This document shows, in pieces, positions 1 to 27,867 of a stretch of DNA of 64,000 nt; the first letter of the stretch is position 1, and the number at the start of each line of letters is the position of its first letter. The stretch spans positions 143,842,001-143,906,000 of the forward strand of contig CM059431.1 of NCBI GenBank assembly GCA_030390025.1, given 5' to 3'. Position numbers and translations under genes: made by a program. The notes under the pieces are model-generated. The model did not search any database and was not told the DNA's origin. It was given only the letters and a program-made list of their open reading frames with translations. Source of the DNA: Squalus acanthias. Its lineage: Eukaryota.

Positions 1-1360
1 GTCCGGGGGGAAGGAAGGCGCGTAGGAAAAATAAACACCTAAGGGCGGAACCCCTCGCGGAGGAAACATCAGAGTTGACCGAACTCACGCCCGAGTACAT
101 CGCGGAGTTGGTCGGGATGCATGAGACTGGGGGGGTCCTCGTGACCGGGCCCATGACCGTGACCGCAACTGCTGAGGCAGCTAAATCAAGACCTGCGGCC
201 GGGCTCGGGCCCGAGGGGCCCAAGAAACCCAGTCGTCGGAAGGGGGCAGAGAGGGAGGCCCCAGCAGACATGGAGGCCTCCCCCTCTCCGGGCCCCAATA
301 TGTTAAAAAGAAAGCTCCGCCCCTAGGAGGAGGAGGACTGCGAGGAGGAAGGTCCCTCCGCAGAAGGGGGGGAGTCGCCCGCCGCGGGTGCTGCGCCCAA
401 CCCCACCACCGTCATCATCGCGCGCGATCGGCGGGGGTCGTCTGTCCCTCGGGAGGGTGAGACAGCCGAGTCTGTCCGACCTGTGCCTCCCGGGGATGGG
501 GAAGAGACCCTGCCCGTGGGGGGGGGTGCGGCACAACCCGCGGAGGGAAATGTAGTTCCGGAACCGTTGCTCCTCGCCGGGTCGGGCGTCCTGGGGACTG
601 GGGCGGGCGAGGCCAAAGAGGCTGAAGCCGAGTCCGCCTTTTATAACCCAGACATCTCCCAGGGACTGCTCGACCTGGTGGAGGAGTGTAGCAGTCCCCG
701 GCCCGCTGGGTCGGAGGTTGGTGGCGGGGAGACGGAAAGCCCCCTGACTCCGTCTCTGTTGTTGGCGCCGGACGTGCTGGAGGAATTTGGGATTATTTTC
801 TCCCCGGTTTCTCCGGTCGCCCCGGCGCCTGAGGCGGGGGGGGGGCCCGAACCGCCGCCGCCGCCTTCCGGCCGGCGCCCCTGAAGGAGCCCAGGGTGGA
901 CTCCTCTGCCACCGATCCTGGGGGTGGGATCATGACGGAGGCGGGGCCAGCCGGTGCGGCCGAGCCGTTCGCTGCACCCTGTGTGATGGACGGGTTGGCC
1001 GCCGGTGACGACCTCCCGGAGGAGGACGGGGACTCGGTGTTGGGCATCGAGGACGATTTGGATTCCATCGGCAGCGAGGTGATGGACGCCCTCGTGCCCT
1101 TCACCGACTCTCCCCTCATCCCCGTAGGGGAACTCCGGGATTTTATGGCCATGAGCCAGGGTCGTCACAAGAAGATCCGGCTGGCCCTCGACAAGTGGTC
1201 GGAACTGGCGCTGCTCGTCGTGTCCGTCCGCGCCGCCGTTAAAATCATGGGCGCGGACAAGGACGTTGGCCGGCTCGAGCTGCGTCAGCTCAAGAGTTTC
1301 CACACTGGGCTGCTGAGGGAGTGGCGGTCGTCAGTGACCGCGCTCCCTCCCCTCCGTTAG
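1..1360 (+). pseudogene. Tx1 ORF1 C-terminal half, copy 1 (stop at 324-326, frameshift near 866)
   Basis: ORFs 75..326, 483..884 and 896..1360 match the ORF1 C-terminus of copies 3/4 (…ELRDFMAMSQGRHKK…SSVTALPPLR*). Confidence 0.85.
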
Positions 1361-1385
1361 GTAGAGGTTGCACTATGCTTCTGAG

Positions 1386-4300
1386 ATGAAGATAACCATA
1401 GCCAGCCTCAACATCAAGGGCAGCAGGGAGGCGCGCCGTAGAGTCAATAACTTCTCGGTCCTTCGGGACGGGAAATATGCGGTGTGCTTCCTGCAAGAAA
1501 CCCACACCATTCCGGGAGACGAGGCCATGTGGCTCCTGGAGTGGCAAGGAGGGGTCAGCATGAGTCACCTCTCTAACAATTCCTGCGGGGTGGCTGTCTT
1601 GCTGGCCCCGCATTTTCAGTCGGAGATCTTGAGGGTCAAGGAGCACGTGCCGGGCCGCTTGCTCCAGGTCACTGTTCGCCTGGGAGGCGTGCCGCTCCAT
1701 TTAGTGAACGTGTACGCCCCCCGGACCGGTGCGCAGCAAGTGCGCTTCTTCGGAGAAGTGTTCGCTCTTCTGGGCTCCATTGACGTGGGCGAGTGCGTCA
1801 TCCTCGGGGGGGATTTCAATTGTACCCTCGAGGCGCGGGACCGGTCGGGTCCCCCGCGAAGCCCGGAGGCGATGGAGAAGTTGCGGGACCTGGTCGGGTC
1901 CTTCGACTTGGTGGACGTCTGGCGAAATCTCCATCCCGACTCCAGCGCCTTCACGAGCGTGAGGTCTGGAGGAGGAAGGTCCAGAATTGACCGCCTTTAC
2001 ATTTCCCGGGCGTACGTCTCCTGCGTTCCGGCGGCTTCCATGCGGCCGGTGCCGTGCACGGACCACCACCTGGTGTGGGCGGAGCTCGCTCCGCTGCGCA
2101 CGCGGGGGGGGTCCGCGTACTGGCATTTTAACAACCTGCTGCTGGAGGACACGCGGTTCCGGGATTCGTTTCGCCGGTTCTGGGCCGACTGGAGAAGGAA
2201 TCTGGGAGGCTTCCCCTCCTTGAGGCTATGGTGGGACGTGGGCAAGGCTCACGTCCGCGTCTTCTGTCAGGAGTACGCGAAGGGGTCGACCAAGAGGCGG
2301 GAGGCCCGGGTCGGGCGATTGGAGAAAGAAGTGCTCGACCTGGAGTCCCGTCTCGGTCAAGTCGTCGAGGACCCGGCCCTGCGGAAGGTGTACGAAGAGA
2401 AGAAGGGCGCGCTGAAGGACCTGCAGCTGGTCGGGTCCCGAGGCGCGTACGTGAGGTCGCGGATCCAGTTCCTGCGGGACCTGGACCGCGGCTCCCCCTT
2501 CTTCTAGTCGCTGGAAAAAAGACGGGGGGTCCGTAAGCAGCTCTTGGGGCTGCTGGCCGATGACGGATCTCTGGTCTCGGATCCGGAGGGCATCAGCGCG
2601 GAGGCTCGGACCTATTACGGGGCTCTGTTCTGTTCGGATCCGTCCAGCGAGGATGCGCGCAGAGTTTTGTGGGAGGACCTGCCGAAGTTCGGCCCGGAGG
2701 GTGCCGAGAATTTAGAAGCTCCACTAAGCCTGGCGGAGCTGACCGGCGCCCTGCGCCAGCTCTCGAGGGGCAAGTCCCCGGGGCTGGACGGGCTGACCGT
2801 GGAGTTCCACAGGGCGTTCTGGGACGTCTTGGGGGACGACTACGCGCGGGTCCTGGGGGAAAGTCTGGCGACCGGGGAGATGCCCCTCTCTTGGCGCAGG
2901 GCGGTCATCGTCCTGCTGACCAGGAAGGGCGATCTCCGCCTACTTAAGAACTGTCGCCCGGTCTCCCTCCTCAGCACGGACTACAAAATTTTCGCCAGGG
3001 CTATGTCTGCTCGCCTTGGCACCGTGCTGGCCCGCATGATCCACCCCGACCAGTCCTACACGGTCCCGGGCCGGAGCATCCACGATAACATCCATCTGGT
3101 CCGGGACCTGGTCCACCATTCCCAGAGGGCTGGTCTGTCGGTTGCCAACCTTTCCCTGGATCAGGAGAAGGCGTTCGACAGGGTGGATCACGAGTATCTT
3201 TTCGGGACTCTGCGCGCATTCGGGTTCGGGACGCATTTCGTCGCCCGGATCCGACTTCTGTACGCCGCCGCGGAGTGTCTGATTAAAGTTAACGGGTCTT
3301 TGATGGCGCCCCTTCGCTTCGGGAGGGGGGTGCGTCAGGGATGCCCCATGTCCGGTCAGTTATACGCCGTTTGCGTGGAGCCTTTCCTGCGCCTCTTGCG
3401 GAAGAGGTTGACGGGACTGGCTCTGCAAGGGCCGGGCATGGAGGTGGTCCTCTCGGCTTACGCCGATGACGTGCTCCTCGCGGTCACGGATCCCGTCGAC
3501 TTGCGGAGGATGCGAGAATGCCAGCAGATTTACTCGGACGCATCCTCCGCCAAGATCAACTGGGAGAAATGTTCTGGACTCCTGGTGGGCCCATGGCGGG
3601 TGGACTCCCTGCCGGAGGAGTTCGGGACTTTCGCCTGGAGCACCACGCACCTCCTCTACCTGGGAGTCTACCTCAGCCCGGCCGAGGACGCCTTGCCGGC
3701 GAACTGGCAAGAGCTGGAGGCCAAAGTCACCGCTCGTCTAGGACGCTGGACAGGACTGCTCCGAGTGTTGTCATACAGGGGTCGAGCGCTGGTCATAAAC
3801 CAGCTGGTGGCCGCCATGTTGTGGTACCGGTTGATCACTTTGATCCCTCCCCCTGCGTTTGTCGCCAAGATGCAGAAGAAGCTCGTCGACTTCTTCTGGG
3901 ACAGAAGGAAGCACTGGGTCTCTGCCGCGGTTTTGAGTCTCCCGCTTAGGGAGGGCGGTCAGGCGCTGGTGTGCCTTCGCACCCAGGCGGCGACTTTCCA
4001 TCTTCAGACGCTGCAGAGATACCTGTACGTAGAGAATCCTCCTAGGTGGCGTGCGCTGGCGACGTATTTCTTCCGCCAGCTGCACAGCCTCAATTACGAC
4101 ACGCAGCTCCTGTTTGTGAGAGTGGGTGGCACGTGTGCCAGCCTGCGGGAGCTGCCTGTCTTCTACCAGGAACTGCTATGGGTTTGGAACAGCGTCGCCT
4201 CCGAGCGCAGTTCTCCCCCGTCAGGAGCGGCGGCCGTCCTTCGGGAGCCGCTGTTCAGGAATCCGCACCTCCACGACCGTGGGTTCGGCTGGCTGGCGGA

Positions 4301-5285
4301 GGGCAGGGCTGTGCCCGGTAAGGTGACCAGAGTCGGGGACCTGCTCGATGGCGGAGGAGCGGGCTGGATGGCGCCGGAGGAGTTGGCGAGGCGCATGTCC
4401 TGGGTCAACGTCCGGCTCGTGGTCAAAGCCATCGAGTCGCTAAAAGTGGCACTGGGCCCCGTCTCCACTAGGTGTGTCGAGGAGGCTCAAGCACGTGGGG
4501 CGATCCCGTCCGAACTGACCCCCGCTCGGACGGAATTACTTATCGGCGCCCGGCCCCAAATCCTCCCTCGGGAGCCGCCGCCTCAGCACTTGAGCCTTCT
4601 CGGAGAAATACCCTCCGTGCCCTTTCAATCCGCACGGAGGCGTTTCCTGTACGGGCTGGTCCTGCACACTCTCCACTTTGCCATCTTCGTCTGCCGTCCG
4701 GACACGCCTTGGCGTTCCATCCTGCCGTCCGGCGGAGGCGAAGGTCCCCATTGGAAGGCTCTCTACGCGGGAGTCTTCCCTTGTTCTATTGGGGACTTGG
4801 CCTGGACGTTGTTGCACGGAGCAGTCCCGTGCAATAGGGTTTTAAATAGGTTTATGGACTCCCAGGCTGCTTGCCATTTCTGCGGCCTGGAGGAGTCCGT
4901 CTATCACATTTATATTGAGTGTGAGAGGTTGCAGCCCCTCTTTCATTATTTGAAGGGGCTGCTCCTCAATTTCTGGTTGCACTTCAGCCCCACGCTCCTG
5001 ATCTACGGTCACCCGGTGCGGAGGGGAGCGGGTAGGTCAGAGGACCTCCTCGTAGGACTGCTCCTGGGCCTGGCCAAGAAAGCCATTAATTGGTCCAGGC
5101 AGCGGGCGGTCGAGGGGGTCGTTCGGCCCGATTGCCTGCCTCTCTTCCGCGGCCATGTTCGCGCCCGGGTGGCCCTGGAGATGGAGCACGCGGTGTCCGC
5201 CGGCACGCTTGAGTTTTTCCGCGACCGGTGGGCGCCGCGGGGGCTGGAGTGCATCGTCACCCCGGACTTCCAAATTTTGATTTGA
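1386..5285 (+). pseudogene. Tx1 ORF2 (AP endonuclease + reverse transcriptase + C-terminal CCHC), 1299 codons, one nonsense change TAC>TAG at 2505-2507
   Basis: ASLNI, LQETH, GGDFN, RIDR, TDHH (APE); KSPGLDG, LDQEKAFDRVDH, GVRQGCPMS, YADD (RT); CHFC…H…C; ORFs 1368..2507 and 2544..5285 share one frame. Confidence 0.93.
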
Positions 5286-5330
5286 TTTATTAAGTTTCAT
5301 TTAAAGTTTTAATTGATTTACAGTAAATTT

Positions 5331-5372
5331 TGATTTGTCCAACCTGATTTGTCCAACCTGATTTGTCCAACC
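5331..5372 (+). repeat. 3 x 14-bp TGATTTGTCCAACC at the 3' end of Tx1 copy 1
   Basis: Directly visible; absent from copies 3 and 4. Confidence 0.9.
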
Positions 5373-5381
5373 AAAAAGAGC

Positions 5382-8300
5382 AACACCAGGTTATAGTCCA
5401 ACAGCTTTATTTGAAATCACAAGCTTTCGGAGCTGCTGACGAAGCAGCAGCAGCAGCAGCAGAGTGGTGGTCTCTGTGACCAGGAAGAGGAGAAGGAGAA
5501 GGGGACCAGACAGCAGGCCACCACCAACAACCAACAACCACTACTGAGGTGCCTGGAGAGAGAGGACAGGAGAGGAGAAAGAGAAGAAGGGAAGGCCAAG
5601 GCCATCAAACATCAGAGGAGAGGCCTTTCCACACTGCCTCCTCAATTGGCCTCCATTTTAGGCGAGGGAGAGAGGGGAGAAAACATCACACCATCAACTG
5701 TTTGGAAGGAGGAAGGAAGGAAAGAACAACAGCTACAAGTGGGTGTGATTCTGGGGCACTCTCCCAGAGACTTTGTTTTGTAGGTCGGGGGAGGAAAGAA
5801 GAAAAGAAGAGGGCCGGAACATCCAAGGGGTGTGTGTGTGTGTGTGTGGCTTCTGTAAAAGCTAGGCCGCACACACCATATTAAACACCCCTTTCCCATT
5901 GCCTGACCTGGGACAGCTGGAGCTGCTTAGGTGAAATCCCCAATTAATTTAATCTTATTGGGCATCGTTAAGACCTGGTGCAGGACTGAGCCTGGGCATC
6001 TCCAGCTGTCCCAGGTGAAGACATCTTCTCCCCCCACCAGAAGACCACCACCAAAGACTTTTATTACATCGGAGAGTGCACCCCCCTGCCAACACCCACC
6101 CACCCACCATCCTGAGTGGCGACCCTGCCCTTGCGGCTTCCCTCCTTCCCACCCCCTCTCTCTCTCTCTCTCTTTGTCTCTTGTTTCTCTCTGCCTCTCT
6201 CTCGAAGAGGCACCTCAATTTGCTTATAATTAAGTACCCATTGAGCAGAGGGGAGAAGGCCCCTCTCCCAACTCAATCAACTAAAGGGAGAGGTGTGCCT
6301 TCAATTTAAGAGCTCCCTCTGCTCAGGGGAAAACAAAAACAAAAAAAACCGAGGCCATTAACACCTTCAGGCCTGTGACTTGGGGTGAGTGTAGCCCTTA
6401 AAGAACCCCCCATTATGGCGGGTACATCTTAGTCGGTGGCGGGGGCAGCGTGGACGTATGCGAGCGCGCCAGCCGCGGCCACGGCCGCAGCCACGAGTCC
6501 TCCTGTTACCCCGTCACCTTTTACCCTCCTTACGAGGAAGAATGGGGTCAAGAGCTACACTCACCCCAATATGACAATAGAGGCGTGCGTAAAAGCCATG
6601 GCTGGGGTTGTCGGCCCTTCAGCCATCGTCGCCGCCTCTAAAATGTACGGCAAGGCTGTGTTCTTCCTCGGGTCGGAGCGGGCGGTGTCCCTGGCCATCG
6701 AGAAGGGGCTCACCGTGGGCGGGACCTTCCTGCCGGTGGACGCCCTTGAGGCCACCGCGCAAAGGATTGTGGTTTCCAACGTCCCGCCCTTTGTTCCGGG
6801 TGAGCTCCTCCTCCCCCACCTACGTCAACTGGGGGAGGTGAGGTCGGGGATCACACCCATCCCGCTCGGCTTCCGGGAAGCCAGCCTTCGGCACGTCTTC
6901 TCCTTCCGGCGCCAGCTTTTCGTCCGGCTGGCGCGGGAGGAGGACGCGGATGGCGGGTTCACGGTGCTCCACGGGGGGACCGCCCACCGCGTCTTCTGGA
7001 CCTCGGACGGCGTGCGGTGCTACGCCTGTAAGGAGGTGGGGCACGTCCGCAAAAACTGCCCCGCCTCCAAGACCGCCACGACACCTGGCGCGGCCAGGGT
7101 TGGCGCCGCCGCCCCCCCTCCCCATGATACTGTCCGCGCGTCGACGGCGACGGATGCGTGGTCGAAATCGGAGGCCAACACCACCACGGCCTCCGGCGGG
7201 GGGGAGGGAGAGCGTCCGGGGGGAAGGAAGGCGCGTAGGAAAAATAAGCACCTAGGTGCGGATCCCCTCGTGGAGGAAACATCGGAGTTGACCGAACTCA
7301 CGCCCGAGTACATCGCGGAGTTGGTCGGGACGCATGAGACTGGGGGGGTCCTCGTGCCCGGGCCCGTGACCGTGACCGCAACTGCTGAGGCAGCTAAATC
7401 AATACCTGCAGCCGGGCTCGGGCCCGAGGGGCCCAAGAAACCCAGTCGTCGGAAGGGGGCAGAGAGGGAGGCCCCAGCAGACATGGAGGCCTCCCCCTCT
7501 CCGGGCCCCAACTTGTTAAAAGAAAGCTCCGCCCTCAGCAGGAGGACTGCGAGGAGGAAGGTCCCTCCGCAAAAGGGGGGCAGTCGCCCGCCACGGGTGC
7601 TGCGCCCCACCCCACCACCGTCATCGTCGCGCGCGATCGGCAGGGGTCGTCTGTCCCTCGGGAGGGTGAGACAGCCGAGTCTGTCCGACCTGTGCCTCCC
7701 GGGGATGGGGAAGAGACCCTGCCCATGGGGGGGGGCGCGGAACAACCCGCGGAGGGAAATGTAGTTCCGGAACCGTTGCTCCTCGCCGGGTCGGGCGTCC
7801 TGGGGACTGGGGCGGGCGAGGCCAAGAGGCTGAAGCCGAGCCCGCCTTTTTATAAACCAGACATCTCCCAGGGACTGCTCGACCTGGTGGAGGAGTGTAG
7901 CAATCCCCAGCCCGCTGGGTCGGAGGTTGGTGGCGGGGAGACGGAAAGCCCCCTGACTCCGTCTCTGTTGTTGGCGCCGGACGTGCTGGAGGAATTTGGG
8001 ATTATTTTCTCCCCGGTTTCTCCGGTCGCCCTGGCGCCTGAGGCGGGGGGGGCCCCCAAACCTCCGCCGCCGCCTCCCGGCCCGGCGCCCCTGAAGGAGC
8101 CCAGGGTGGACTCCTCTGCCACCGATCCTGGGGGTGGGATCGTGACGGAGGCGGGGCCGGCCGGTGCGGCCGAGCCGTTCGCTGCAACCCTGTGCGACGG
8201 ACGGGTCGGCCGCCGGGGTGACGACCTCCCGGAGGAGGGAGGGGACTCGGTGGTGGGCATCGAGGACGATTTGGAGTCCATCGGCAACGAGGTGATGGAC

Positions 8301-8569
8301 GCCCTCGTGCCCTTCACCGACCTCTCCCCTCATCCCCGTAGGGGAACTCCGGGATTTTATGGCCATGAGCCAGGGTCGTCACAAGAAGATCCGCTGGCCC
8401 CGACAAGTGGTCGGAGCTGGCGCTGCTCGTCGTGTCCCGTCCGCGCCGCCGGTTAAAATCATGGGTGCGGATCAAGACGTTGGCTGGCTCGAGCTGCGTC
8501 GGCTCAAGAGTTTCCACACTGGGCAAGCTGAGGGAGTGGCGGTCGTCAGTGACCGTGCTCCCTCCCCTC
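5382..8569 (+). mobile_element. Tx1-like copy 2: 5' UTR and disrupted ORF1, cut by assembly gap
   Basis: Starts AACACCAGG; ORF1 ATG at 6415 with TAG at 6430; zinc knuckle CYACKEVGHVRKNC; many indels towards the gap. Confidence 0.9.
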
Positions 8570-8769
8570 NNNNNNNNNNNNNNNNNNNNNNNNNNNNNNN
8601 NNNNNNNNNNNNNNNNNNNNNNNNNNNNNNNNNNNNNNNNNNNNNNNNNNNNNNNNNNNNNNNNNNNNNNNNNNNNNNNNNNNNNNNNNNNNNNNNNNNN
8701 NNNNNNNNNNNNNNNNNNNNNNNNNNNNNNNNNNNNNNNNNNNNNNNNNNNNNNNNNNNNNNNNNNNNN
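8570..8769. other. Assembly gap (200 N)
   Basis: Run of N. Confidence 1.
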
Positions 8770-9825
8770 TGAGAAGTCGCACAACACCAGGTTATAGTCC
8801 AACAGCTTTATTTGAAATCACAAGCTTTCGGAGCTGCTGATGAAGGAGCAGCAGCAGCAGCAGCAGCAGCAGAGTGGTGGTCTCTGTGACCAGGAAGAGG
8901 AGAAGGAGAAGGAGACCAGACAGCAGACCACCACCAACACAACCACAACCACTACTGAGGTGCCTGGAGGGAGAGGACAGGAGAGGAGAGGGAAAAGAAG
9001 GAAAAGAAGGCCAAGGCCGTCAAACACCAGAGGAGAGGCCTTTCCACACTGCCTCCTCAATTGGCCTCCATTTTAGGAGAGGGAGAGAGGGGGAGAAAAC
9101 AACACAACATCCATCATCTGTTTGGAAGGAGGAAGGAAGGAAAGAACATCAGCTACAGGTGGGTGTGATTCTGGGGCACTCTCCCAGAGACTTTGTTTTG
9201 TAGGTGGGGGGAGGAAAGAAGAAAAAGAAGAAGGCCAAGGGGTGTGTGTGTGTGTGTGTGGCTTGTGTAAAAGCTAGGCCGCACACACCATATTAAACAC
9301 CCCTTTCCCATTGCCTGACCTGGGACAGCTGGAGCTGCCTAGGTGAAGTCCCCAATTAATTTAATCTTATTGGGCATCGTTAAGACCTGGTGCAGGACTG
9401 AGCCTGGGCCTCTCCAGCTATCCCAGGTGAAGACATCTTCTCCCCCCACCAGAAGACCACCACCAAAGACTTTTATTACATCGGAGAGTGCACCCCCCTG
9501 CCAACACCCACCCACCCACCATCCTGAGTGGCGACCCTGCCCTTGCGGCTTCCCTCCTTCCCACCCCGCCCTCTCTCTCTCTCTTTGTCTCTTGTCTCTC
9601 TCTGCCTCTCTCTCTAAGAGGCACCTCAATCTATTTTTAATTAAGTACCCATTGAGCAGAGGGGAGAAGGCCCCTCTCCCAATTAAATTCATATAAAGGG
9701 AGAGGTGTGCCTTCAATTTAAGAGTTCCCTCTGCTCAGGGGAAAACAAAAACAAAAAAACCGAGGCCATTAACACCTTCAGGCCTGTGACTTGGGGTGAG
9801 TGTAGCCCTTAAAGACCAACCCATC

Positions 9826-11987
9826 ATGGCGACCACATCTTCGCCGGTGGCGGGGGCAGCGAGGACATACGCGAGCGTGGCAGCCGCGGCCACGGCCGCA
9901 GCCACGAGTCCTCCTGTTACCCCGTCACCTTTTACCCTCCTTACGAGGAAGAATGGGGTCAAGAGCTACACTCACCCCAACATGACTACAGAGGCGTGCG
10001 TTAAAGCCATGGCTGGGGTTGTCGGCCCTTCAGCCATCGTCGCCGCCTCTAAAATGTACGGCAAGGCTGTGTTCTTCCTGGGGTCGGAGCGGGCGGTGTC
10101 CCTGGCCATCGAGAAGGGGCTCACCGTGGGCGGGACCTTCCTGCCGGTGGACCCCCTTGAGGCCACCGCGCAAAGGATTGTGGTTTCCAACGTCCCGCAC
10201 TTTGTTCCGGGTGTGCTCCTCCTCCCCCACCTACGTCAACTGGGGGAGGTGAGGTCGGGGATCACACCCATCCCGCTCGGCTTCCGGGAAGCCAGCCTTC
10301 GGCACGTCTTCTCCTTCCGGCGCCAGCTTTTCGTCCGGCTGGTGCGGGAGGAGGACGCGGATGGCGCGTTCACGGTGCTCCACGGGGGGACCGCCCACCG
10401 CGTCTTCTGGACCTCGGACGGCGTGCGGTGCTACGCCTGTAAGGAGGTGGGGCACGTCCGCAAATACTGCCCCGCCTCCAAGGCCGCCACGACACCTGGC
10501 GCGGCCAGGGTTGGCGCCGCCGCCCCCCCTCCCCCTGATACTGTCCGCGCGTCGATGGCGACGGATGCGCGGTCGAAATCGGAGGCCAACACCACCACGG
10601 CCTCCGGCGGGGGGGAGGGAGAGCGTCCGGGGGGAAGGAAGGCGCGTAGGAAAAATAAACACCTAGGGGCGGATCCCCTCGTGGAGGAAACATCGGAGTT
10701 GACCGAACTCACGCCCGAGTACATCGCGGAGTTGGTCGGGACGCATGAGACTGGGGGGGTCCTCGTGCCCGGGCCCGTGACCGTGACCGCAACTGCTGAG
10801 GCAGCTAAATCAAGACCTGCGGCCGGGCTCGGGCCCGAGGGGCCCAAGAAACCCAGTCGTCGGAAGGGGGCAGAGAGGGAGGCCCCAGCAGACATGGAGG
10901 CCTCCCCCTCTCCGGGCCCCAACTTGTTAAAAAGAAAGCTCCGCCCCCAGCAGGAGGACTGCGAGGAGGAAGGTCCCTCCGCAAAAGGGGGGCAGTCGCC
11001 CGCCGCGGGTGCTGTGCCCCACCCCACCACCTTCATCGTCGCGCGCGATCAGCAGGGGTCGTCTGTCCCTCGGGAGGGTGAGACAGCCGAGTCTGTCCGA
11101 CCTGTGCCTCCCGGGGATGGGGAAGAGATCCTGCCCGTGGGGGGGGGGGGGCGCGGAACAACCCGCGGAGGGAAATGTAGTTCCGGAACCGTTGCTCCTC
11201 GCCGGGTCGGGCGTCCTGGGGACTGGGGCGGGCGAGGCCAAAGAGGCTGAAGCTGAGCCCGCCTTTTATAACCCAGACATCTCCCAGGGACTGCTCGACC
11301 TGGTGGAGGAGTGTAGCAATCCCCAGCCCGCTGGGTCGGAGGTTGGTGGCGGGGAGACGGAAAGCCCCCTGACTCCGTCTCTGTTGTTGGCGCCGGACGT
11401 GCATGGAGGAATTTGGGATTATTTTCTCCCCGGTTTCTCCGGTCGCCCCAGCGCCTGAGGCGGGGGGTGGCCCCGAACCGCCGCCGCCGCCTCCCGGCCC
11501 GGCGCCCCTGAAGGAGCCCAGGGTGGACTCCTCTGCCACCGATCCTGGGGGTGGGATCGTGACGGAGGCGGGGCCGGCCGGTGCGGCCGAGCCGTTCGCT
11601 GCACCCTGTGCGACGGACGGGTCGGCAGCCGGTGACGACCTCCCAGAGGAGGACGGGGACTCGGTGGTGGGCATCGAGGACGATTTGGAGTCCATCGGCA
11701 ACGAGGTGATGGACGCCCTCGTGCCCTTCAGCGACTCTCCCCCCATCCCCGTAGGGGAACTCCGGGATTTTATGGCCATGAGCCAGGGTCGTCACAAGAA
11801 GATCCGGCTGGCCCTCGACAAGTGGTCGGAGCTGGCGCTGCTCGTCGTGTCCGTCCGCGCCGCCGTTAAAATCATGGGCGCGGACAAGGACGTTGGCCGG
11901 CTCGAGCTGCGTCGGCTCAAGAGTTTCCACACTGGGCTGCTGAGGGAGTGGCGGTCGTCAGTGACCGCGCTCCCTCCCCTCCGTTAG
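9826..11987 (+). pseudogene. Tx1 ORF1, copy 3 (~720 aa nucleic-acid-binding protein with CCHC knuckle), frameshifts near 11145 (G-run) and 11403
   Basis: MATTSSPVAG… ASKMYGKAVFFL, IVVSNVP, FSFRRQLF, CYACKEVGHVRKYC; continued by ORFs 11009..11458 and 11403..11987. Confidence 0.85.
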
Positions 11988-12012
11988 GTAGAGGTTGCAC
12001 TATGCTTCTGAG

Positions 12013-15000
12013 ATGAAGATAACCATAGCCAGCCTCAACATCAACGGCAGCAGGGAGGCGCGCCGTAGATTCAATAAATTCTCGGTCCTTCGGGACGGGA
12101 AATATGCGGTGTGCTTCCTGCAAGAAACCCACACCGTTCCGGGAGACGAGGCCACGTGGCTCCTGGAGTGGCAAGGAGGGGTCAGCATGAGTCACCTCTC
12201 CAACAATTCCTGCGGGGTGGCTGTCTTGCTGGCCCCGCATTTTCAGCCGGAGATCTTGAGGGTCAAGGAGCACGTGCCGGGCCGCTTGCTCCAGGTCACT
12301 GTTCGCCTGGGAGGCGTGCCGCTCCATTTAGTGAACGTGTACGCCCCCCGGACCGGTGCGCAGCAAGTGCGCTTCTTCGGAGAAGTGTCCGCTCTTCTGG
12401 GCTCCATCGACGTGGGCGAGTGCGTCATCCTCGGGGGGGATTTCAATTGTACCCTCGAGGCGCGGGACCGGTCGGGTCCCCCGCGAAGCCCGGCGGCGAT
12501 GGAGAAGTTGCGGGACCTGGTCGGGTCCTTCGACTTGGTGGACGTCTGGTGAAATCTCCATCCCGACTCCAGCGCCTTCACGAGTGTGAGGTCTGGAGGA
12601 GGAAGGTCCAGAATCGACCGCCTTTACATTTCCCGGGCGTACGTCTCTTGCGTTCCGGCGGCTTCCATGCGGCCGGTGCCGTGCACGGACCACCACCTGG
12701 TGTGGGCGGAGCTCGCTCCGCTGCGCGCGCGGGGGGGGTCCGCGTACTGGCATTTTAACAACCTGCTGCTGGAGGACGCGCGGTTCCGGGATTCGTTTCG
12801 CTGGTTCTGTGCCGACTGGAGAAGGAAGCGGGGAGGCTTCCCCTCCTTGAGGCTATGGTGGGACGTGGGCAAGGCTCACGTCCGCGTCTTCTGTCAGGAG
12901 TATGCGAAGGGGTCGACCAAGAGGCGGGAGGCCCGGGTCGGGCGATTGGAGAAAGAAGTGCTCGACCTGGAGTCCCGTCTCGGTCAAGTCGTCGAGGACC
13001 CGGCCCTGCGGAAGGTGTACGAAGAGAAGAAGGGCGCGCTGAAGGACCTGCAGCTGGTCGGGTCCCGAGGCGCGTACGTGAGGTCGCGGATCCTGTTCCT
13101 GCGGGACCTGGACCGCGGCTCCCCCTTCTTCTACTCGCTGGAAAAAAGACGGGGGGTCCGTAAGCAGCTCTTGGGGCTGCTGGCCGACGACGGATCTCTG
13201 GTCTCGGATCCGGAGGGCATCAGCGCGGAGGCCCGGGCCTATTACGGGGCTCTGTTCTCTTCGGATCCGTCCAGCGAGGATGCGCGCAGAGTTTTGTGGG
13301 AGGACCTGCCGAAGGTCGGCCCGGAGGGCGCCGAGAATTTAGAAGCTCCGCTAAGCCTGGCGGAGCTGACCGGTGCCCTGCGCCAGCTCTCGAGGGGCAA
13401 GTCCCCGGGGCTGGACGGGCTGACCGTGGAGTTCCACAGGGTGTTCTGGGACGTCTTGGGGGACGACTACGCGCGGGTCCTGGGGGAAAGTCTGGCGACC
13501 GGGGAGATGCCCCTCTCTTGGCACAGGGCGGTCATCGTCCTGCTGCCCAAGAAGGGCGATCTCCGCCTACTTAAGAACTGGCGCCCGGTCTCCCTCCTCA
13601 GCACGGACTACAAAATTTTCGCCAGGGCTATGTCTGCTCGCCTTGGCACTGTGCTGGCCCGCATGATCCACCCCGACCAGTCCTACACGGTCCCGGGCCG
13701 GAGTATCCACGATAACATCCATCTGGTCCGGGACCTGGTCCACCATTCCCAGAGGGCTGGTCTGTCGGTCGCCTTCCTTTCCCTGGATCAGGAGAAGGCG
13801 TTCGACAGGGTGGATCACGAGTATCTTTTCGGGACTCTGCGCGCATTCGGGTTCGGGACGCATTTCGTCGCCCGGATCCGAATTCTGTACGCCGCCGCGG
13901 AGTGTCTCATTAAAGTTAACGGGTCTTTGACGGCGCCCCTTCGCTTCGGGAGGGGGGTGCGTCAGGGATGCCCCATGTCCGGTCAGTTATACGCCGTTTG
14001 CGTGGAGCCTTTCCTGCGCCTCTTGCGGAAGAGGTTGACGGGACTGGCTCTGCAAGGGCCGGGCGTGGAGGTGGTCCTCTCGGCTTACGCCGATGACGTG
14101 CTCCTCGCGGTCACGGATCCCGTCGACTTGCGGAGGATGCGAGAATGCCAGCAGATTTACTCGGACGCATCCTCCGCCAAGATCAACTGGGAAAAATGTT
14201 CTGGACTCCTGGTGGCCCCATGGCAGGTGGACTCCCTGCCGGAGGAGTTCGGGCCTTTCGCCTGGAGCACCACGCACCTCCTCTACCTGGGAGTCTACCT
14301 CAGCCCGGCCGAGGACGCCTGGCCGGCGAACTGGCAAGAGCTGGAGGCCAAAGTCAGCGCTCGCCTAGGGCACTGGACAGGATTGCTCCGAGTGTTGTCC
14401 TACAGGGGTCGAGTGCTGGTCATAAACCAGCTGGTGGCCGCCATGTTGTGGTACCGGTTGGTCACTTTGATCCCTCCCCCTGCGTTTGTCGCCAAGATGC
14501 AGAAAAAGCTCGTCGACTTCTTCTGGGACAAAAGGAAGCACTGGGTCTCTGCCGCGGTTTTGAGTCTCCCGCTTAGGGAGGGCGGTCAGGCGCTGGTGTG
14601 CCTTCGCACCCAGGTGGCGACTTTCCGTCTTCAGACGCTGCAGAGATACCTGTACGTGGAGAATCCTCCTAGGTGGCGTGCGCTGGTGACGTATTTCTTC
14701 CGCCAGCTGCACGGCCTCAATTACGACACGCAGCTCCTGTTTGTGAGAGTGGGTGGCATGCGTGCCAGCCTGCGGGAGCTGCCTGTCTTCTACCAGGAAC
14801 TGCTATGGGTTTGGAACAGCGTCGCCTCCGAGCGCAGTTCTCCCCCGTCAGGAGCGGCGGCCGTACTTCGGGAGCCGCTGTTCAGGAATCCGCACCTCCA
14901 CAACCGCGGGTTCGGCTGGCTGGCGGAGGGCAGGGCTGTGCCCGGTAAGGTGACCAGAGTCGGGGACCTGCTCGATGGCGGAGGAGCGGGCTGGATGGCG

Positions 15001-15912
15001 CCGGAGGAGTTGGCGAGGCGCATGTCCTGGGTCAACGTCCGGCTCGCGGTCAAAGCCATCGAGTCGCTAAAAGTGGCACTGGGCCCCGTCTCCACTAGGT
15101 GTGTCGAGGATTCTCAAGCACGTGGGGCGATCCCGTCCGAACTGACCCCCATTCGGACGGAATTCCTTATCGGCGCCCGGCCCCGAATCCTCCCTCGGGA
15201 GCCGCCGCCCCACCACTTGAGCCTTCTCGGAGAAATGCCCTCCGTGCCCTTTCAATCCGCACGGAGGCGTTTCCTGTACGGGCTGCTCCTGCACACTCTC
15301 CACTTTGCCATCTTCGTCTGCCGTCCGGACACGCCTTGGCGTACCATCCTGCCGTCCGGCGGAGGCGAAGGTCCCCATTGGAAGGCTCTCTACGTGGGAG
15401 TCTTCCCTTGTTCTATTGGGGACTTGGCCTGGAGGGTGTTGCACGGAGCAGTCCCGTGCAATAGGATTTTAAGTAGGTTTACGGACTCCCAGGCTGCTTG
15501 CCATTTTTGCGGCCTGGAGGAGTCCGTTTATCACATTTATGTTGAATGTGAGAGGTTGCAGCCCCTCTTTCATTATTTGAAGGGGCTGCTCCTCAATTTC
15601 TGGTTGCACTTCAGCCCCACGCTCCTGATCTACGGTCACCCGGTGCGGAGGGGAGCGGGTAGGTCGGAGGACCTCCTCGTAGGACTGCTCCTGGGCCTGG
15701 CTAAGAAAGCCATTAATTGATCCAGGCAGCGGGCGGTCGAGGGGGTCGTTCGGCCCGATTGCCTGCCTCTCTTACGCGGCCATGTTCGCGCCTGGGTGGC
15801 CCTGGAGATGGAGCACGCGGTGTCCGCCGGCACGCTTGAGTTTTTCCGCGACCGGTGGGCGCCGCGGGGACTGGAGTGCATCGTCACCCCAGACTTCCAA
15901 ATTTTAATTTGA
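12013..15912 (+). pseudogene. Tx1 ORF2, copy 3 (APE-RT-CCHC), nonsense codons at 12550 and 15718
   Basis: Same 3900-nt frame as copy 1; CGA>TGA and TGG>TGA stops. Confidence 0.92.
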
Positions 15913-17015
15913 TTTATTAAGTTTCATTTCAAGTTTTAATTGATTTACAGTAAATTTGGGTTCAACCAAAAAGATGAACACCAGGTTATAGTCCAACAGC
16001 TTTATTTGAAATCACAAGCTTTCGGAGCTGCTGACGAAGGAGCAGCAGCAGCAGCAGGAGCAGCAGAGTGGTGGTCTCTGTGACCAGGAAGAGGAGAAGG
16101 AGAAGGAGACCAGACAGCAGGCCACCACCAACAACCAACAACCACTACTGAGGTGCCTGGAGAGAGAGGACAGGAGAGGAGAAAGAGAAGAAGGGAAGGC
16201 CAAGGCCATCAAACATCAGAGGAGAGGCCTTTGCACACTGCCTCCTCAATTGGCCTCCATTTTAGGCGAGGGAGAGAGGGGAGAAAACATCACACCATCA
16301 ACTGTTTGGAAGGAGGAAGGAAGGAAAGAACAACAGCTACAGGTGGGTGTGATTCTGGGGCACTCTCCCAGAGACTTTGTTTTGTAGGTGGGGGGAGGAA
16401 AGAAGAAAAGAAGAGGGCCGGAACATCCAAGGGGTGTGTGTGTGTTTGTGTGGCTTCTGTAAAAGCTAGGCCGCACACACCATATTAAACACCCCTTTCC
16501 CATTGCCTGACCTGGGACAGCTGGAGCTGCTTAGGTGAAGTCCCCATTTAATTTAATCTTATTGGGCATCGTTAAGACCTGGTGCAGGACTGAGCCTGGG
16601 CATCTCCAGCTATCCCAGGTGAAGACATCTTCTCCCCCCACCAGAAGACCACCACCAAAGACTTTTATTACATCGGAGAGTGCACCCCCCCTGCCAACAC
16701 CCACCCACCCACCATCCTGAGTGGCGACCCTGCCCTTGCGGCTTCCCTCCTTCCCACCCCGCCCTCTCTCTCTCTCTTTGTCTCTTGTCTCTCTCTGCCT
16801 CTCTCTCTAAGAGGCACCTCAATCTATTTTAATTAAGTACCCATTGAGCAGAGGGCAGAAGGCCCCTCTCCTAATTAATTCATAAAAAGGGAGAGGTGTG
16901 CCTTCAATTTAAGAGCTCCCTCTGCTCAGGGGAAAACAAAAACAAAAAACCGAGGCCATTAACACCTTCAGGCCTGTGACTTGGTGTGAGTGTAGCCCTT
17001 AAAGACCAACCCATC

Positions 17016-19173
17016 ATGGCGACCACATCTTCGCCGGTGGCGGGGGCAGCGAGGACATACGCAAGCGTGGCAGCCGCGGCCACGGCCGCAGCCACGAGTC
17101 CTCCTGTTACTCCGTCACCTTTTACCCTCCTTACGAGGTAGAATGGGGTCAAGAGCTACACTCACCCCAACATGACAATAGAGGCGTGCGTAAAAGCCAT
17201 GGCTGGGGTTGTCGGCCCTTCAGCCATCGTCGCCACCTCTAAAATGTATGGCAAGGCTGTGTTCTTCCTGGGGTCGGAGCGGGCGGTGTCCCTGGCCATC
17301 GAGAAAGGGCTCACCGTGGGCGGGACCTTCCTGCCGGTGGACCCCATTGAGGCCACCACGCAAAGGATTGTGGTTTCCAACGTCCCGCCCTTTGTTCCGG
17401 GTGAGCTCCTCCTCCCCCACCTACGTCAACTGGGGGAGGTGAGGTCGGGGATCACACCCATCCCGCTCGGCTTCCGGGAAGCCAGCCTTCGGCACGTCTT
17501 CTCCTTCCGGCGCCAGCTTTTCGTCCGGCTGGCGCGGGAGGAGGACGCGGATGGCGCGTTCACGGTGCTCCACGGGGGGACCGCCCACCGCGTCTTCTGG
17601 ACCTCGGACGGCGTGCGGTGCTACGCCTGTAAGGAGGTGGGGCACGTCCGCAAAAACTGCCCCGCCTCCAGGGCCGCCACGACAGCTGGCGCGGCCAGGG
17701 TTGGCGCCGCCGCCCCCCCTCCCCCTGATACTGTCCGCGCGTCGATGGCGACGGATCCGCGGTCGAAATCGGAGGCCAACGCCACCACGGCCTCCGGCGG
17801 GGGGGAGGGAGAGCGTCCGGGGGGAAGGAAGGCGCGTAGGAAAAATAAACAGCTAAGTGCGGATCCCCTCATGGAGGAAACATCTGAGTTGACCGAACTC
17901 ACGCCCGAGTACATCGCGGAGTTGATCGGGACGCATGAGACTGGGGGGGTCCTCGTGCCCGGGCCCGTGACCGTGACCGCAACTGCTGAGGCAGCTAAAT
18001 CAAGACCTGAGGCCGGGCTCGGGCCCGAGGGGCCCAAGAAACCCAGTCGTCGGAAGGGGGCAGAGAGGGAGGCCCCAGCAGACATGGAGGCCTCCCCCTC
18101 TCCGGGCCCCAATATGTTAAAAAGAAAGCTAGACCCCCAGGAGGAGGACTGCGAGGAGGAAGGTCCCTCCGCAGAGGGGGAGTCGTCGCCCGCCGCGGGT
18201 GCTGCGCCCCACCCCACCACCGTCATCGTCGCGCGCGATCGGGGGGGGTCGTCTGTCCCTCGGGAGGGTGAGACAGCCGAGTCTGTCCGACCTGTGCCTC
18301 CCGGGGATGGGGAAGAGACCCTGCCCGTGGGGGGGGGGCGCGGAACAACCCGCGGAGGGAAATGTAGTTCCGGAACCGTTGCTCCTCGCCGGGTCGGGCG
18401 TCCTGGGGACTGGGGCGGGCGAGGCCAAAGAGGCTGAAGCCGAGCCCGCCTTTTATATCCCAGATATCTCCCAGGGACTGCTCGACCTGGTGGAGGACTT
18501 TAATAATCCCCAGCCCGCTGGGTCGGAGGTTGGTGGCGGGGAGACGGAAAGCCCCCTGACTCCGTCTCTGATGTTGGCGCCGGACGTACTGGAGGAATTT
18601 GAGATTATTTTCTCCCCGGTTTCTCCGGTCGCTCCGGCGCCTCAGGCGGGGGGGTGCCCCGAACCGCCGCCGCCGCCTCCCGGCCCGGCGCCCCTGAAGG
18701 AGCCCAGGGTGGACTCCTCTGCCACCGATCCTGGGAGTGGGATCGTGACGGAGGCGGGGCCAGCCGGTGCGGCCGAGCCGTTCGCTGCACCCCGTGCGAC
18801 GGACGGGTCGGCCGCCGGTGACGACCTCCCGGAGGAGGACGGTGACTCGGTGGTGGGCATCGAGGACGATTTGGAGTCCATCGGCAGCGAGGTGATGGAC
18901 GCCCTCGTGCCCTTCACCGACCCTCCCCTCATCCCCGTAGGGGAACTCCGGGATTATATGGCCATGAGCCAGGGTCGTCACAAGAAGATCCGGCTGGCCC
19001 TCGACAAGTGGTCGGAGCTGGCGCTGCTCGTCGAGTCCATCCGCGCCGCCGTTAAAATCATGGGCGCGGGCAAGGACGTTGGCCGGCTCGAGCTGCATCG
19101 GCTCAAGAGATTCCACACTGGGCTGCTGAGGGAGTGGCGGTCGTCAGTGACCGCGCTCCCTCCCCTCCGTTAG
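17016..19173 (+). pseudogene. Tx1 ORF1, copy 4 (early TAG near 17139, G-run frameshift near 18335)
   Basis: ORFs 17172..18437 and 18199..19173. Confidence 0.85.
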
Positions 19174-19198
19174 GTAGAGGTTGCACTATGCTTCTGAG

Positions 19199-22100
19199 AT
19201 GAAGATAACCATAGCCAGCCTCAACATCAACGGCAGCAGGGAGGCGCGCCGTAGATTCAATAACTTCTCGGTCCTTCGGGACGGGAAATATGCGGTGTGC
19301 TTCCTGCAAGAAACCCACACCGTTCCGGGAGACGAGGCCACGTGGCTCCTGGAGTGGCAAGGAGGGGTCAGCATGAGTCACCTCTCTAACAATTCCTGCG
19401 GGGTGGCTGTCTTGCTGGCCCCGCATTTTCAGCCGGAGATATTGAGGGTCAAGGAGCACGTGCCAGGCCGCTTGCTCCAGGTCACTGTTCGCCTGGGAGG
19501 CGTGCCGCTCCATTTAGTGAACGTGTACGCCCCCCGGACCGGTGCGCAGCAAGTGCGCTTCTTCGGAGAAGTGTCCGCTCTTCTGGGCTCCATCGACGTG
19601 GGCGAGTGCGTCATCCTCGGGGGGGATTTTAATTGTACCCTCGAGGCGCGGGACCGGTCGGGTCCCCCGCAAAGCCCGGCGGCGATGGAGAAGTTGCGGG
19701 ACCTGGTCGGGTCCTTCGACTTGGTGGACGTCTGGCGAAATCTCCATCCCGACTCCAGCGCCTTCACGAGCGTGAGGTCTGGAGGAGGAAGGTCCAGAAT
19801 CGACCGCCTTTACATTTCCCTGGCGTACGTCTCCTGCGTTCCGGCGGATTCCATGCGGCCGGTGTCGTGCACGGACCACCACCTGGTGTGGGCGGAGCTG
19901 GCTCCGCTGCGCGCGCGGGGGGGGGTCCGCGTACTGGCATTTTAACAACCTGCTGCTGGAGGACGCGCGGTTCCTGGATTCGTTTCGCCGGTTCTGGGCC
20001 GACTGGAGAAGGAAGCGGGGATGCTTCCCCTTCCTGAGGCTATGGTGGGACGTGGGCAAGGCTCACGTCCGCGTCTTCTGTCAGGAGTACGCGAAGGGGT
20101 CGACCAAGAGGCGGGAGGCCCGGGTCGGGCGATTGGAGAAAGAAGTGCTCGACCTGGAGTCCCGTCTCGGTCAAGTCGTCGAGGACCCGGCCCTGCGGAA
20201 GGTGTACGAAGAGAAGAAGGGCGCGCTGAAGGACCTGCAGCTGGTCGGGTCCCGAGGCGCGTACGTGAGGTCGTCGATCCAGTTCCTGCGGGACCTGGAC
20301 CGCGGCTCCCCCTTCTTCTACTCGCTGGAAAAAAAGACGGGGGGTCCGTAAGCAGCTCTTGGGGCTGCTGGCCGACGACGGATCTCTGGTCTCGGATCCG
20401 GAGGGCATCAGCGCGGAGGCCCGGGCCTGTTACGGGGCTCTGTTCTCTTCGGATCCGTCCAGCGAGGATGCGCGCAGAGTTTTGTGGGAGGACCTGCCGA
20501 AGGTCGGCCCGGAGGGCGCCGAGAATTTAGAAGCTCCGCTACGCCTGGCGGAGCTGACCGGCGCCCTGCGCCAGCTCTCGAGGGGCAAGTCCCCGGGGCT
20601 GGACGGGCTGACCATGAAGTTCCACAGGGCGTTCTGGGACGTCTTGGGGGACGACTACGAGCGGGTCCTGGGGGAAAGTCTGGCGACCGGGGAGATGCCC
20701 CTCTCTTGGTGCAGGGCGGTCAACGTCCTGCTGCTCAAGAAGGGCGATCTCCGCCTACTTAAGAACTGGCGCCCGGTCTCCCTCCTCAGCACGGACTACA
20801 AAATGTTCGCCAGGGCTATGTCTGCTCGCCTTGGCACCGTGCTGGCCCGCATGATCCACCCCGACCAGTCCTACATGGTCCCGGGCCAGAGTTTCCACGA
20901 TGACATCCATCTGGTCCGGGACCTGGTCCACCATTCCCAGAGGGCTGGTCTGTCGGTCGCCTTCCTTTCCCTGGATCAGGAGAAGGCGTTCGACAGGGTG
21001 GATCACGAGTATCTTTTCGGGACTCTGCACGCATTCGGGTTCGGGACGCATTTCGTCGCCCGGATCCGACTTCTGTACGCCGCCGCGGAGTGTCTCATTA
21101 AAGTTAACGGGTCTTTGACGACGCCCCTTTGCTTCGGGAGGGGGGTGCGTCAGGGATGCCCCATGTCCGGTCAGTTATACGCCGTTTGCGTGGAGCCTTT
21201 CCTGCGCCTCCTGCGGAAGAGGTTGACGGGACTGGCTCTGCAAGGGCCGGGCGTGGAGGTGGAGATGCCCCTCTCTTGGCGCAGGGCGGTCATCGTCCTG
21301 CTGCCCAAGAAGGGCGATCTCCGCCTACTTAAGAACTGGCGCCCGGTCTCCCTCCTCAGCACGGACTACAAAATTTTCGCCAGGGCTATGTCTGCTCGCC
21401 TTGGCACCGTGCTGGCCCGCATGATCCACCCCGACCAGTCCTACACGGTCCCCGGCCGGACAATCCACGACAACATCCATCTGGTCCGGGACCTGGTCCA
21501 CCATTCCCAGAGGGCTGGTCTGTCGGTCGCCTTCCTTTCCCTAGATCAGGAGAAGGCGTTCGACAGGGTGGATCACGAGTATCTTTTCGGGTCTCTGCGC
21601 GCATTCGGGTTCGGGACGCATTTCGTCGCCCGGATTCGACTTCTGTAAGCCGCCGCTGAGTGTCTGATTAAAGTTAACGGGTCTTTGACAGTGCCCCTTC
21701 GCTTCGGGAGGGGGGTGCGTCAGGGATGCCCCATGTCCGGTCAGTTATACGCCGTTTGCGTGGAGTCTTTCCTGCACCTCTTGCGGAAGAGGTTGACGGG
21801 ACTGGCTCAGCAAGGGCCGGGCGTGAAGGTGGTCCTCTCGGCTTACGCCGATGACGTGCTCCTCGCGGTCACAGATCCCGTCGACTTGCGGAGGATGCGA
21901 GAATGCCAGCAGATTTACTCGGACGCATCCTCCGCCAAGATCAACTGGGAGAAATGTTCTGGACTCCTGGTGGGCCCATGGCAGGTGGACTCCCTGCCGG
22001 AGGAGTTTGGGCCTTTTGCCTGGAGCACCACGCACCTCCTCTACCTGGGAGTCTACCTCAGCCCGGCCGAGGACGCCTGGCCGGCGAACTGGCAAGAGCT

Positions 22101-23670
22101 GGAGGCCAAAGTCACCGCTCGCCTAGGGCGCTGGACAGGACTGCTCCGAGTGTTGTCCTACAGGGGTCGAGCGCTGGTCATAAACCAGCTGGTGGCCGCC
22201 ATGTTGTGGTACCGGTTGGTCACTTTGATCCCTCCCCCTGCGTTTGTCGCCAAGATGCAGAAGAAGCTCGTCGACTTCTTCTGGGACAAAAGGAAGCACT
22301 GGGTCTCTGCCGCGGTTTTGAGTCTCCCGCTTAGGGAGGGCGGTCAGGCGCTGGTGTGCCTTTGCACCCAGGCGGCGACTTTCCGTCTTCAGACGCTGCA
22401 GTGATACCTGTACGTGGAGAATCCTCCTAGGTGGCGTGCGCTGGCGACGTATTTCTTCCGCCAGCTGCACGGCCTCAATTACGACACGCAGCTCCTGTTT
22501 GTGAGAGTGGGTGGCACGCGTGCCAGCCTGCGGGAGCTGCCTGTCTTCTACCAGGAACTGCTATGGGTTTGGAACAGCGTCGCCTCCGAGCGCAGTTCTC
22601 CCCCGTCAGGAGCGGCGGCCGTCCTTCGGGAGCCGCTGTTCAGGAATCCGCACCTCCACGACCGCGGGTTCGGCTGGCTGGCGGAGGGCAGGGCTGTGCC
22701 CGGTAAGGTGACCAGAGTCGGGGACCTGCTCGATGGCGGAGGAGCGGGCTGGATGGCGCCGGAGGAGTTGGCGAGGCGCATGTCCTGGGTCAACGTCCGG
22801 CTCGCGGTCAAAGCCATCGAGTCGCTAAAAGTGGCACTGGGCCCCATCTCCACTAGGTGTGTCACGGAGGCTCAAGCACGTGGGGCGATCCCGTCCGAAC
22901 TGACCCCCGTTCGGACGGAATTCCTTATCGGCGCCCGGCCCCGAATCCTCCCTCGGGAGCCGCCGCCTCACCACTTGAGCCTTCTCGGAGAAATGCCCTC
23001 CGTGCCCTTTCAATCCGCACGGAGGCGTTTCCTGTACGGGCTGCTCCTGCACACTCTCCACTTTGCCATCTTCGTCTGCCATCCGGACACGCCTTGGCGT
23101 ACCATCCTGCCGTCCGGCGGAGACGAAGGTCCCCATTGGAAGGCTCTCTACGTGGGAGTCTTCCCTTGTTCTATTGGGGACTTGGCCTGGACGTTGTTGC
23201 ACGGAGCAGTCCCGTGCAATAGGGTTTTAAATAGGTTTACGGACTCCCAGGCTGCTTGCCATTTCTGCGGCCTGGAGGAGTCCGTCTATCACATTTATAT
23301 TGAATGTGAGAGGTTGCAGCCCCTCTTTCATTATTTGAAGGGGCTGCTCCTCAATTTCTGGTTGCACTTCAGCCCCACGCTCCTGATCTACGGTCACCCG
23401 GTGCGGAGGGGAGCGGGTAGGTCGGAGGACCTCCTCGTAGGACTGCTCCTGGGCCTGGCCAAGAAAGCCATTAATTGGTCCAGGCAGCGGGCGGTCGAGG
23501 GGGTCGTTCGGCCCGATTGCCTGCCTCTCTTCCGCGGCCATGTTTGCGCCCGGGTGGCCCTGGAGATGGAGCACGCGGTGTCCGCCGGCATGCTTGATTT
23601 TTCCCGCGACCGGTGGGCGCCGCGGGGACTGGAGTGCATAGTCACCCCGGACTTCCAAATTTTAATTTGA
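19199..23670 (+). pseudogene. Tx1 ORF2, copy 4 (frameshifts near 19920 and 20335, stops at 21646 and 22402, duplicated RT segment)
   Basis: Fragment ORFs 19181..19945, 20052..20351, 20359..21648, 21685..22404, 22414..23670. Confidence 0.9.
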
Positions 23671-23739
23671 TTTATTAAGTTTCATTTAAAGTTTTAATTG
23701 ATTTACAGTAAATTTGGGTTCTGTCCAACCAAAAAGAGG

Positions 23740-23829
23740 AACACCAGGTTATAGTCCAACAGTTTTGTTTGAAATCACAAGCGATTTCAAATAAAACTGT
23801 TGGACTATAACCTGGTGTTGTGCGATTTG
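23740..23829. repeat. 37-bp inverted repeat with 6-nt loop; resembles collapsed Penelope-like element termini; Tx1 target
   Basis: AACACCAGGTTATAGTCCAACAGTTTTGTTTGAAATC-acaagc-GATTTCAAATAAAACTGTTGGACTATAACCTGGTGTT, one mismatch; Penelope attribution is from recall. Confidence 0.8.
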
Positions 23830-27863: not shown

Positions 27864-27867
27864 AAGA

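Follow-up and report, generated by a model that had tools for sequence, protein, structure and literature searches.

A tandem array of Tx1L-like LINEs in Squalus acanthias, joined at one fixed base to a probable Penelope-like repeat end

We analyzed a 64,000-nucleotide stretch of the Squalus acanthias genome (hereafter, the window) in which four head-to-tail Tx1 units (U1 to U4; mutual identity, 95 to 97%) fill bases 1 to 23739, the last tail directly adjoining the left arm of a hairpin. The array is Tx1L-like by sequence, and the family it represents is probably sequence-specific and aimed at the end of a Penelope-like element (PLE). Targeting of the repeat is supported and recognition of a cruciform is not; the hairpin is probably incidental to targeting and not an insertion guide. 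The hairpin itself is best read as two 5′-truncated ends of one repeat lying head to head, a by-product of PLE activity. We regard the following three-step account as rather likely. First, an abundant PLE-like element would have inserted two copies of its 3′ end, about 45 to 55 nt each, head to head, both copies ending no more than 4 nt from a predicted hammerhead cleavage site; the product would be the hairpin. Second, a Tx1L-type LINE would nick the sense strand of the repeat, always at the same base, its APE endonuclease reading a short linear duplex, and would insert by target-primed reverse transcription, antisense to the repeat. Third, a 52-nt head carried by the element would supply homology for 5′ joining and rebuild the target, so that later elements would insert ahead of the rebuilt target and build head-to-tail arrays.

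The array has the gene content of a Tx1-clade LINE. ORF2 consists of an N-terminal APE endonuclease (EN), a reverse transcriptase (RT), and a C-terminal zinc finger, the layout of this clade, with Pfam matches PF03372, PF00078, and PF13966 (PF13966 below cut-off) in U1, U3, and U4; it is interrupted in all three units that show it. The CCHC zinc knuckle of ORF1 (PF00098) was found in U2 and U4 and not in the U3 frame tested (two of three). Tx1L of Xenopus laevis, the type element of the clade, likewise has two ORFs, an APE endonuclease, an RT, and a zinc finger, and a 1,055-aa piece from U3 is 50% identical to Tx1L ORF2 over 98% of the query (EN region, 46%; RT, 64%). In an RT tree built from 27 of 28 rows (P0003 was omitted for short coverage; midpoint root, no other LINE clade included), the U3 sequence falls in a well-supported set of six (100/99) with Tx1L, a sturgeon protein, two turtle proteins, and one unnamed protein, a grouping with Tx1L that places it in the Tx1 clade. 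The 570-bp tandem duplication in U4 lies inside the RT region (20691-21832), its copies 95% identical. Only 13 nt separate the contig start from U3, and U2 is cut at the other side of the gap (8570-8782); the two sides may be two arrays scaffolded together.

The hairpin that follows the array is real, but known from this assembly alone. Its arms (23740-23776 and 23783-23819) form Watson-Crick pairs at 36 of 37 positions and a G·T pair at the remaining one, around a 6-nt loop (23777-23782). As DNA, 23730-23840 folds at -39.4 kcal/mol (z, -13.2; 0 of 200 shuffles equally good), and inverted repeats of such quality are expected by chance about 2e-14 times per 64 kb of uniform random DNA. Pairing and fold thus bear out a preliminary description of this DNA, which had noted an inverted repeat with a 37-bp stem and a 6-nt loop right after the array. 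It had also claimed that the array replaced the left-arm bases matching the right arm's continuation (GTGCGATTT, 9 nt, at 23820-23828). Those bases are indeed absent beside the left arm but were not lost: the partner, matching at eight of nine positions, lies at 8774-8782, now 15 kb off, and the bases at the array's 5′ junction (8770-8782), just past the 200-N gap, lengthen the stem to 46 nt at 96%. The stem was therefore about 46 bp long before the array split the hairpin. The first 23 nt of the left arm have four exact plus-strand sites in the window and one inverted site, in the right arm (23797). Because these 23 nt and a longer sequence, ending TTTCGGAG, recur at the heads of Tx1 units, the left arm is not unique to the hairpin; the longer sequence, earlier placed at the hairpin, belongs instead to the 5′ heads (5382, 8783, 15977). 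An Rfam search of the window gave 0 matches at gathering score. A microRNA precursor was considered and rejected: 17 Rfam matches, all on the stem and all far below gathering, were generic hairpin matches.

Table 1. Features of the Tx1 array and of the hairpin in the window, in order of position.
Feature	Coordinates	Strand	Remarks
Tx1 unit U1	1..5381	+	Cut by window start; EN, RT, and zf-RVT domains; stop in ORF2
Tx1 unit U2	5382..8569	+	Cut by assembly gap
200-N assembly gap	8570..8769	.	Masks the end of U2 and whatever lies to the left of the hairpin locus
Upstream half of split target (outer end of left arm)	8770..8782	-	5′ junction of the U3-U4 array, after the gap
Tx1 unit U3	8783..15976	+	Full length (7,194 nt); stop interrupts ORF2
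52-nt element-borne head, copying the target on the downstream side of the insertion site	8783..8834	+	Identical at 5382-5433 and 15977-16028
Inverted 16-nt piece after head, then AGC microsatellite	8837..8852	+	Also at 16031; shortened at 5436
Tx1 unit U4	15977..23739	+	Full length; ORF2 broken; internal tandem duplication of 570 bp
Left arm, 5′-truncated PLE-like repeat end, occupied Tx1 target	23740..23776	-	Insertion at 23739/23740; from pairing, depth, and loose ends
Loop, six more bases of the left-arm copy	23777..23782	-	Runs across the predicted hammerhead cleavage site
Predicted hammerhead cleavage	between 23779 and 23778	-	Inferred from the core rule as given in PMC4209133
Right arm, second 5′-truncated copy of the repeat end	23783..23828	+	Intact, unoccupied target site at 23819/23820

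Beyond the hairpin, the window contains a minisatellite cluster at 24663-30605 (22 nt × 148, 78 nt × 3.3, 80 nt × 3.8, and 40 nt × 30), an inverted repeat pair (24222-24541 and 32178-32539, 69%), and a direct repeat pair (41685-42543 and 44785-45648, 89%). An uninterrupted 1,357-aa frame at 35591-40608 carries URGCP and URGCP-GTPase domains; the next frame, of 325 aa and overlapping it, has no Pfam match. A long terminal repeat (LTR) retroelement occupies 52558-63967, bounded by direct repeats (52558-53811 and 62713-63967, 90.5% identical), with matches to a protease, an RT, two RNase H-type domains, and an integrase spread over several frames.

We compared bases 23450-24200 with 4 of 23 sequencing runs (X1, X2, X7, and X21, of which X7 is from a second organism). 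Summed contig depth, a rough order-of-magnitude proxy and no copy number, peaks on the right arm at 3.1 million in X1 and 2.5 million in X2, which is 3,983 and 8,019 times the median depth over 14 flank bins, the flank itself being multi-copy. At some 4,000 to 8,000 times the flank by this rough proxy, the arm behaves as the high-copy repeat end it had been taken for. The last two Tx1 bins reach 1.2 to 3.1% of the peak, which sets a rough upper limit on occupancy. In X7 the peak on the arm is 14,699 against 0 to 7, with zero depth on the Tx1 tail. In about 6% of the raw-read run X21, the right arm drew four partial reads, a number too small to yield a ratio. At 23594-23604, within the Tx1 array, many contigs (X1, X2, X7) depart from the reference with a common variant sequence, which points to related Tx1 families; ORF2 depth is far above that of this tail.

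At the loop, 76 contigs in X1, 86 in X2, and 3 in X7 leave the reference and continue like the head. On the other strand, the consensus of the X1 and X2 loose ends (among the best 18 of 393 rows) reads as a CUGANGA-type core, an unpaired A, and a stem no longer than 5 bp with a G-C closing pair, followed by GAAA and a palindromic 15.2-16.2 pair (read by eye); agreement is 0.72 and median length 10, and the motif's far half rests on few contigs. The X7 loose end agrees with the consensus for the first 9 nt only. The minimal hammerheads of metazoan PLEs, as described in PMC4209133, have an extra base before stem II, a G-C closing pair, and a palindromic 15.2-16.2 pair, and the core, the unpaired base, and both pairs are common to the consensus here. 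Unlike those hammerheads, the window holds no complete motif on one strand. The X1/X2 consensus thus supplies the minimal type I hammerhead of a PLE end (pLTR), both halves of which are also present in the Tx1 head, and the depth peak and hairpin anatomy supply the high copy number and the 5′-truncated, head-to-head inverted junction of a pLTR. The likeness to a PLE terminal repeat that had been proposed gains from the arm sequence running on into this motif. The preliminary description had called the quoted sequence the inverted terminus of an abundant shark Penelope-like repeat, which it may be. The 23-nt start of the arm has 0 loci in the metagenome, viral, and prokaryote collections and no occurrence in the open-licence literature.

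As known here from motif and abundance, then, the repeat is probably a PLE-like end. We consider it unlikely that the target is instead a hammerhead-bearing non-autonomous repeat (retrozyme- or SINE-like) and not the end of a coding PLE: although no linked PLE ORF was seen in the data (Pfam in the window; 0 loci in three collections) and animal retrozymes carry the same ribozyme type, retrozymes are, in the same account, themselves derived from PLE terminal repeats (10.64898/2026.07.22.740005), and head-to-head stubs are a PLE signature (PMC8557442, PMC3846280).

The window's three Tx1 3′ ends all join the arm sequence at one and the same base, with a single base of ambiguity at 5381. The three tails are unlike one another and the units 95 to 97% identical, a pattern to be expected of separate insertions. 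In run X2, one contig spans 23660-23758 with six differences from the window and is therefore another copy with the same junction. The junction sample thus consists of three 3′ ends, all in one window, plus one X2 contig; for comparison, PMC4494074 calls a Tx1 family sequence-specific when >20% of its flanks are one target. With one fixed base at every end in the window, the earlier claim that Tx1 targets this repeat is supported; an old tandem duplication could be the source of two of the three 3′ junctions. Each tail (5331-5381, 15960-15976, and 23717-23739) contains GTCCAAC, which recurs in the target 15 nt beyond the junction. In U1 a 14-nt unit that includes this motif is tripled, and in U3 it is shortened, variation that possibly reflects slippage or re-priming as reverse transcription starts.

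The heads carry information of their own. The 52-nt heads of U2, U3, and U4 are identical. Position 24 sets them apart from both arms, position 28 from the left arm, and they extend 9 nt further along the repeat than the hairpin target does. Position 24 and the extra 9 nt indicate that the head came with the element. Provided that U3 and U4 are a single locus, which the unbroken sequence between them implies, the diagnostic position 24 means that no more than 23 bp of the 5′ junction came from the target. Where the head runs on beyond the arm, it matches the loose ends of contigs at the loop. The inverted 16-nt piece corresponds to the 5′ half of the hammerhead (core CUGANGA, then A and the first strand of stem II) and, in a comparison by eye with the loose ends, to the bases that come next in the repeat, reverse-complemented. 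The Tx1 head (8826-8852; also 16020-16046 and 5425-5448) has both hammerhead halves, one on each strand: antisense sequence leads into stem II, and the inverted sense piece comes after it, so that the whole resembles a small head-to-head junction. A sense-strand hammerhead in the head was rejected; GAAA is absent within 45 nt after the core in all three heads.

One could dispense with repeated targeting if a single ancestral Tx1 in the repeat had been multiplied together with its flank by read-through, hitchhiking, or unequal crossover. The shared heads and the placement of all junctions within one window would suit such a history, but neighboring units are 3 to 5% apart with unlike tails, the outer target and the heads disagree at positions 24 and 28 as well as in the sequence that follows, and X2 holds a differing copy with the same junction, which together make it very unlikely.

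On the repeat's sense strand, both hairpin arms are 3′ ends facing outward, fused at their truncated 5′ ends. By the predicted cleavage site, the left copy would retain 4 nt before the cut and the right copy would begin 2 nt after it. The arms share their base at position 24, which suggests one event. Their outer ends are unequal: the left copy follows the X7 loose end for at least 4 nt more than the right copy does, the outer 7 nt of its upstream half matching that loose end beyond 23825, and only 13 nt of flank remain before the gap. Such an anatomy would result if two short cDNAs stalled at the ribozyme and were then linked at their ends. PLEs leave inverted 5′-truncated copies, mostly head to head, with palindromes at the junctions and a tail on one end only (PMC8557442, PMC3846280), and purified PLE protein nicks and extends both strands, begins reverse transcription at two adjacent sites, and does not need ribozyme cleavage in vitro (PMC11167929). 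The head-to-head pLTR junctions described in these three papers likewise have an inverted 5′-truncated copy abutting an end, a palindrome at the junction, and unequal outer ends; unlike them, both copies here are only about 45 to 55 nt long, without an ORF, and end at the hammerhead core, and any full 30- to 40-nt PLE tail would be hidden here by the gap. A 7-nt tandem repeat beginning ATT (23825-23838) overlaps the outer end of the right arm, and ATT is reportedly preferred by a PLE endonuclease (PMC11167929); the overlap may be chance.

A hairpin at this position might also stem from fold-back as Tx1 integrated or during repair, or from a chimera in the reads or the assembly. X1 and X2 do not confirm the locus (window letters are absent at 23873, 23891, 23909, 23919, and 23929), none of the best 24 of 10,990 pieces bridges the loop, no strand-change joint occurs among the rows listed, and an assembly gap lies 13 nt ahead of the array. 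The mirror nevertheless ends exactly at the insertion point, without a copy of the Tx1 tail, which makes a read chimera unlikely, and the pairing of the right arm's further 9 nt with bases 15 kb away is a pattern that a read chimera cannot give. From that partner, the right arm is older than the insertion or was made with it. We consider an artifact or fold-back highly unlikely and retain the reading of two repeat ends head to head.

The preliminary description had further suggested that Tx1 may recognize a cruciform, and here the junctions speak against it. In the 131 nt surrounding 5382 and 15977, the longest inverted repeat is 8 bp, compared with 37 at 23740. An inverted arm is thus present at one of three insertion junctions, the other two preceding the 52-nt element-borne head, a distribution other than that of structure-guided insertion; if the two are separate insertions, plain duplex suffices. 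The best-supported loose ends at the loop also continue as plain repeat. The Tx1L endonuclease nicks linear duplex almost solely at its own site (PMC1950540) and reads about 10 bp (PMC1919474). That the endonuclease requires or strongly prefers an extruded hairpin is scarcely credible: the array's outer target being a near-perfect hairpin would be mildly surprising if such hairpins are rare among repeat ends, but two junctions have no inverted arm, the nick falls within the stem some 9 bp above what was originally its base, a point at which a hairpin stem reads nearly the same as linear duplex, the right arm's mirror site is unoccupied, and the Tx1L enzyme cuts linear duplex. Hairpins may still be preferred as first landing sites. 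The "safe haven" reading of a high-copy target, also proposed earlier, is reasonable in evolutionary terms; the targeting of repeats is customarily interpreted as a strategy for survival (PMC4640811).

Insertion into other transposons is an established habit of Tx1 elements. Tx1L has a fixed site inside another transposon, the piggyBac-type Tx1D (PMC4494074, PMC1950540). Unlike Tx1L, the family described here has a hammerhead-bearing retroelement end as its target, bears a 52-nt target copy as the head of each unit, and has a DNA-reading hairpin loop of 8 residues in its endonuclease (in all three units) compared with 11 in Tx1L, which, judged from sequence, is in keeping with an altered specificity. 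The crocodilian families Tx1-Mar, Tx1-8_Crp, Tx1-4_AMi, and Tx1-9_AMi are Tx1-clade LINEs that prefer other transposons, as here, with targets among Mariner, LTR retrotransposons, and Harbinger (Kojima 2015, PMC4494074); Tx1-8_Crp and Tx1-4_AMi insert in LTR retrotransposons. Tx1-Mar differs in clustering with Keno and in its looser preference, with two preferred regions. The SINEU elements mobilized by crocodilian Tx1 form tandem insertions, and some of their 5′ extensions resemble the target (PMC4494074). The idea that one retrotransposon here parasitizes another is upheld by the presence of Tx1 at a repeat end, but the habit was already published for Tx1 in that study, whose main text contains the word Penelope 0 times. 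Within the open-licence literature (Repbase and Dfam lying outside this scope), we found no Penelope-like target for Tx1. An abstract reportedly names Penelope as a Tx1 target; our search for such an abstract returned no match. What is new is thus probably a further target, a PLE-like end, added to the known Tx1 habit of targeting other transposons.

A bolder and unlikely extension of the account is that head-to-head stubs cut at the hammerhead are a regular PLE product, made when two cDNAs primed on opposite strands stall at the ribozyme, that the Tx1 head, an antisense end with an inverted half-hammerhead behind it, was taken from one such stub, and that stubs are favored as seeds for arrays. 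If so, transcripts reading through from the final Tx1 unit would form an RNA hairpin of 37 bp. Its 3′ arm would be antisense to the heads of all members of the family and would give them an inbuilt supply of silencing RNA.

With these elements, the list of Tx1 targets would gain a Penelope-like end. A relative of Tx1L that differs from it in both DNA-reading loop and target would form with it a natural pair for studying how APE endonucleases change specificity, and the inherited head with its diagnostic base, which limits the true duplication to at most 23 bp here, offers a way into the question of how LINEs join their 5′ ends. The hairpin, in turn, may be a compact snapshot of the formation of PLE inverted junctions, a step that goes unexplained in the available text of the papers cited here.
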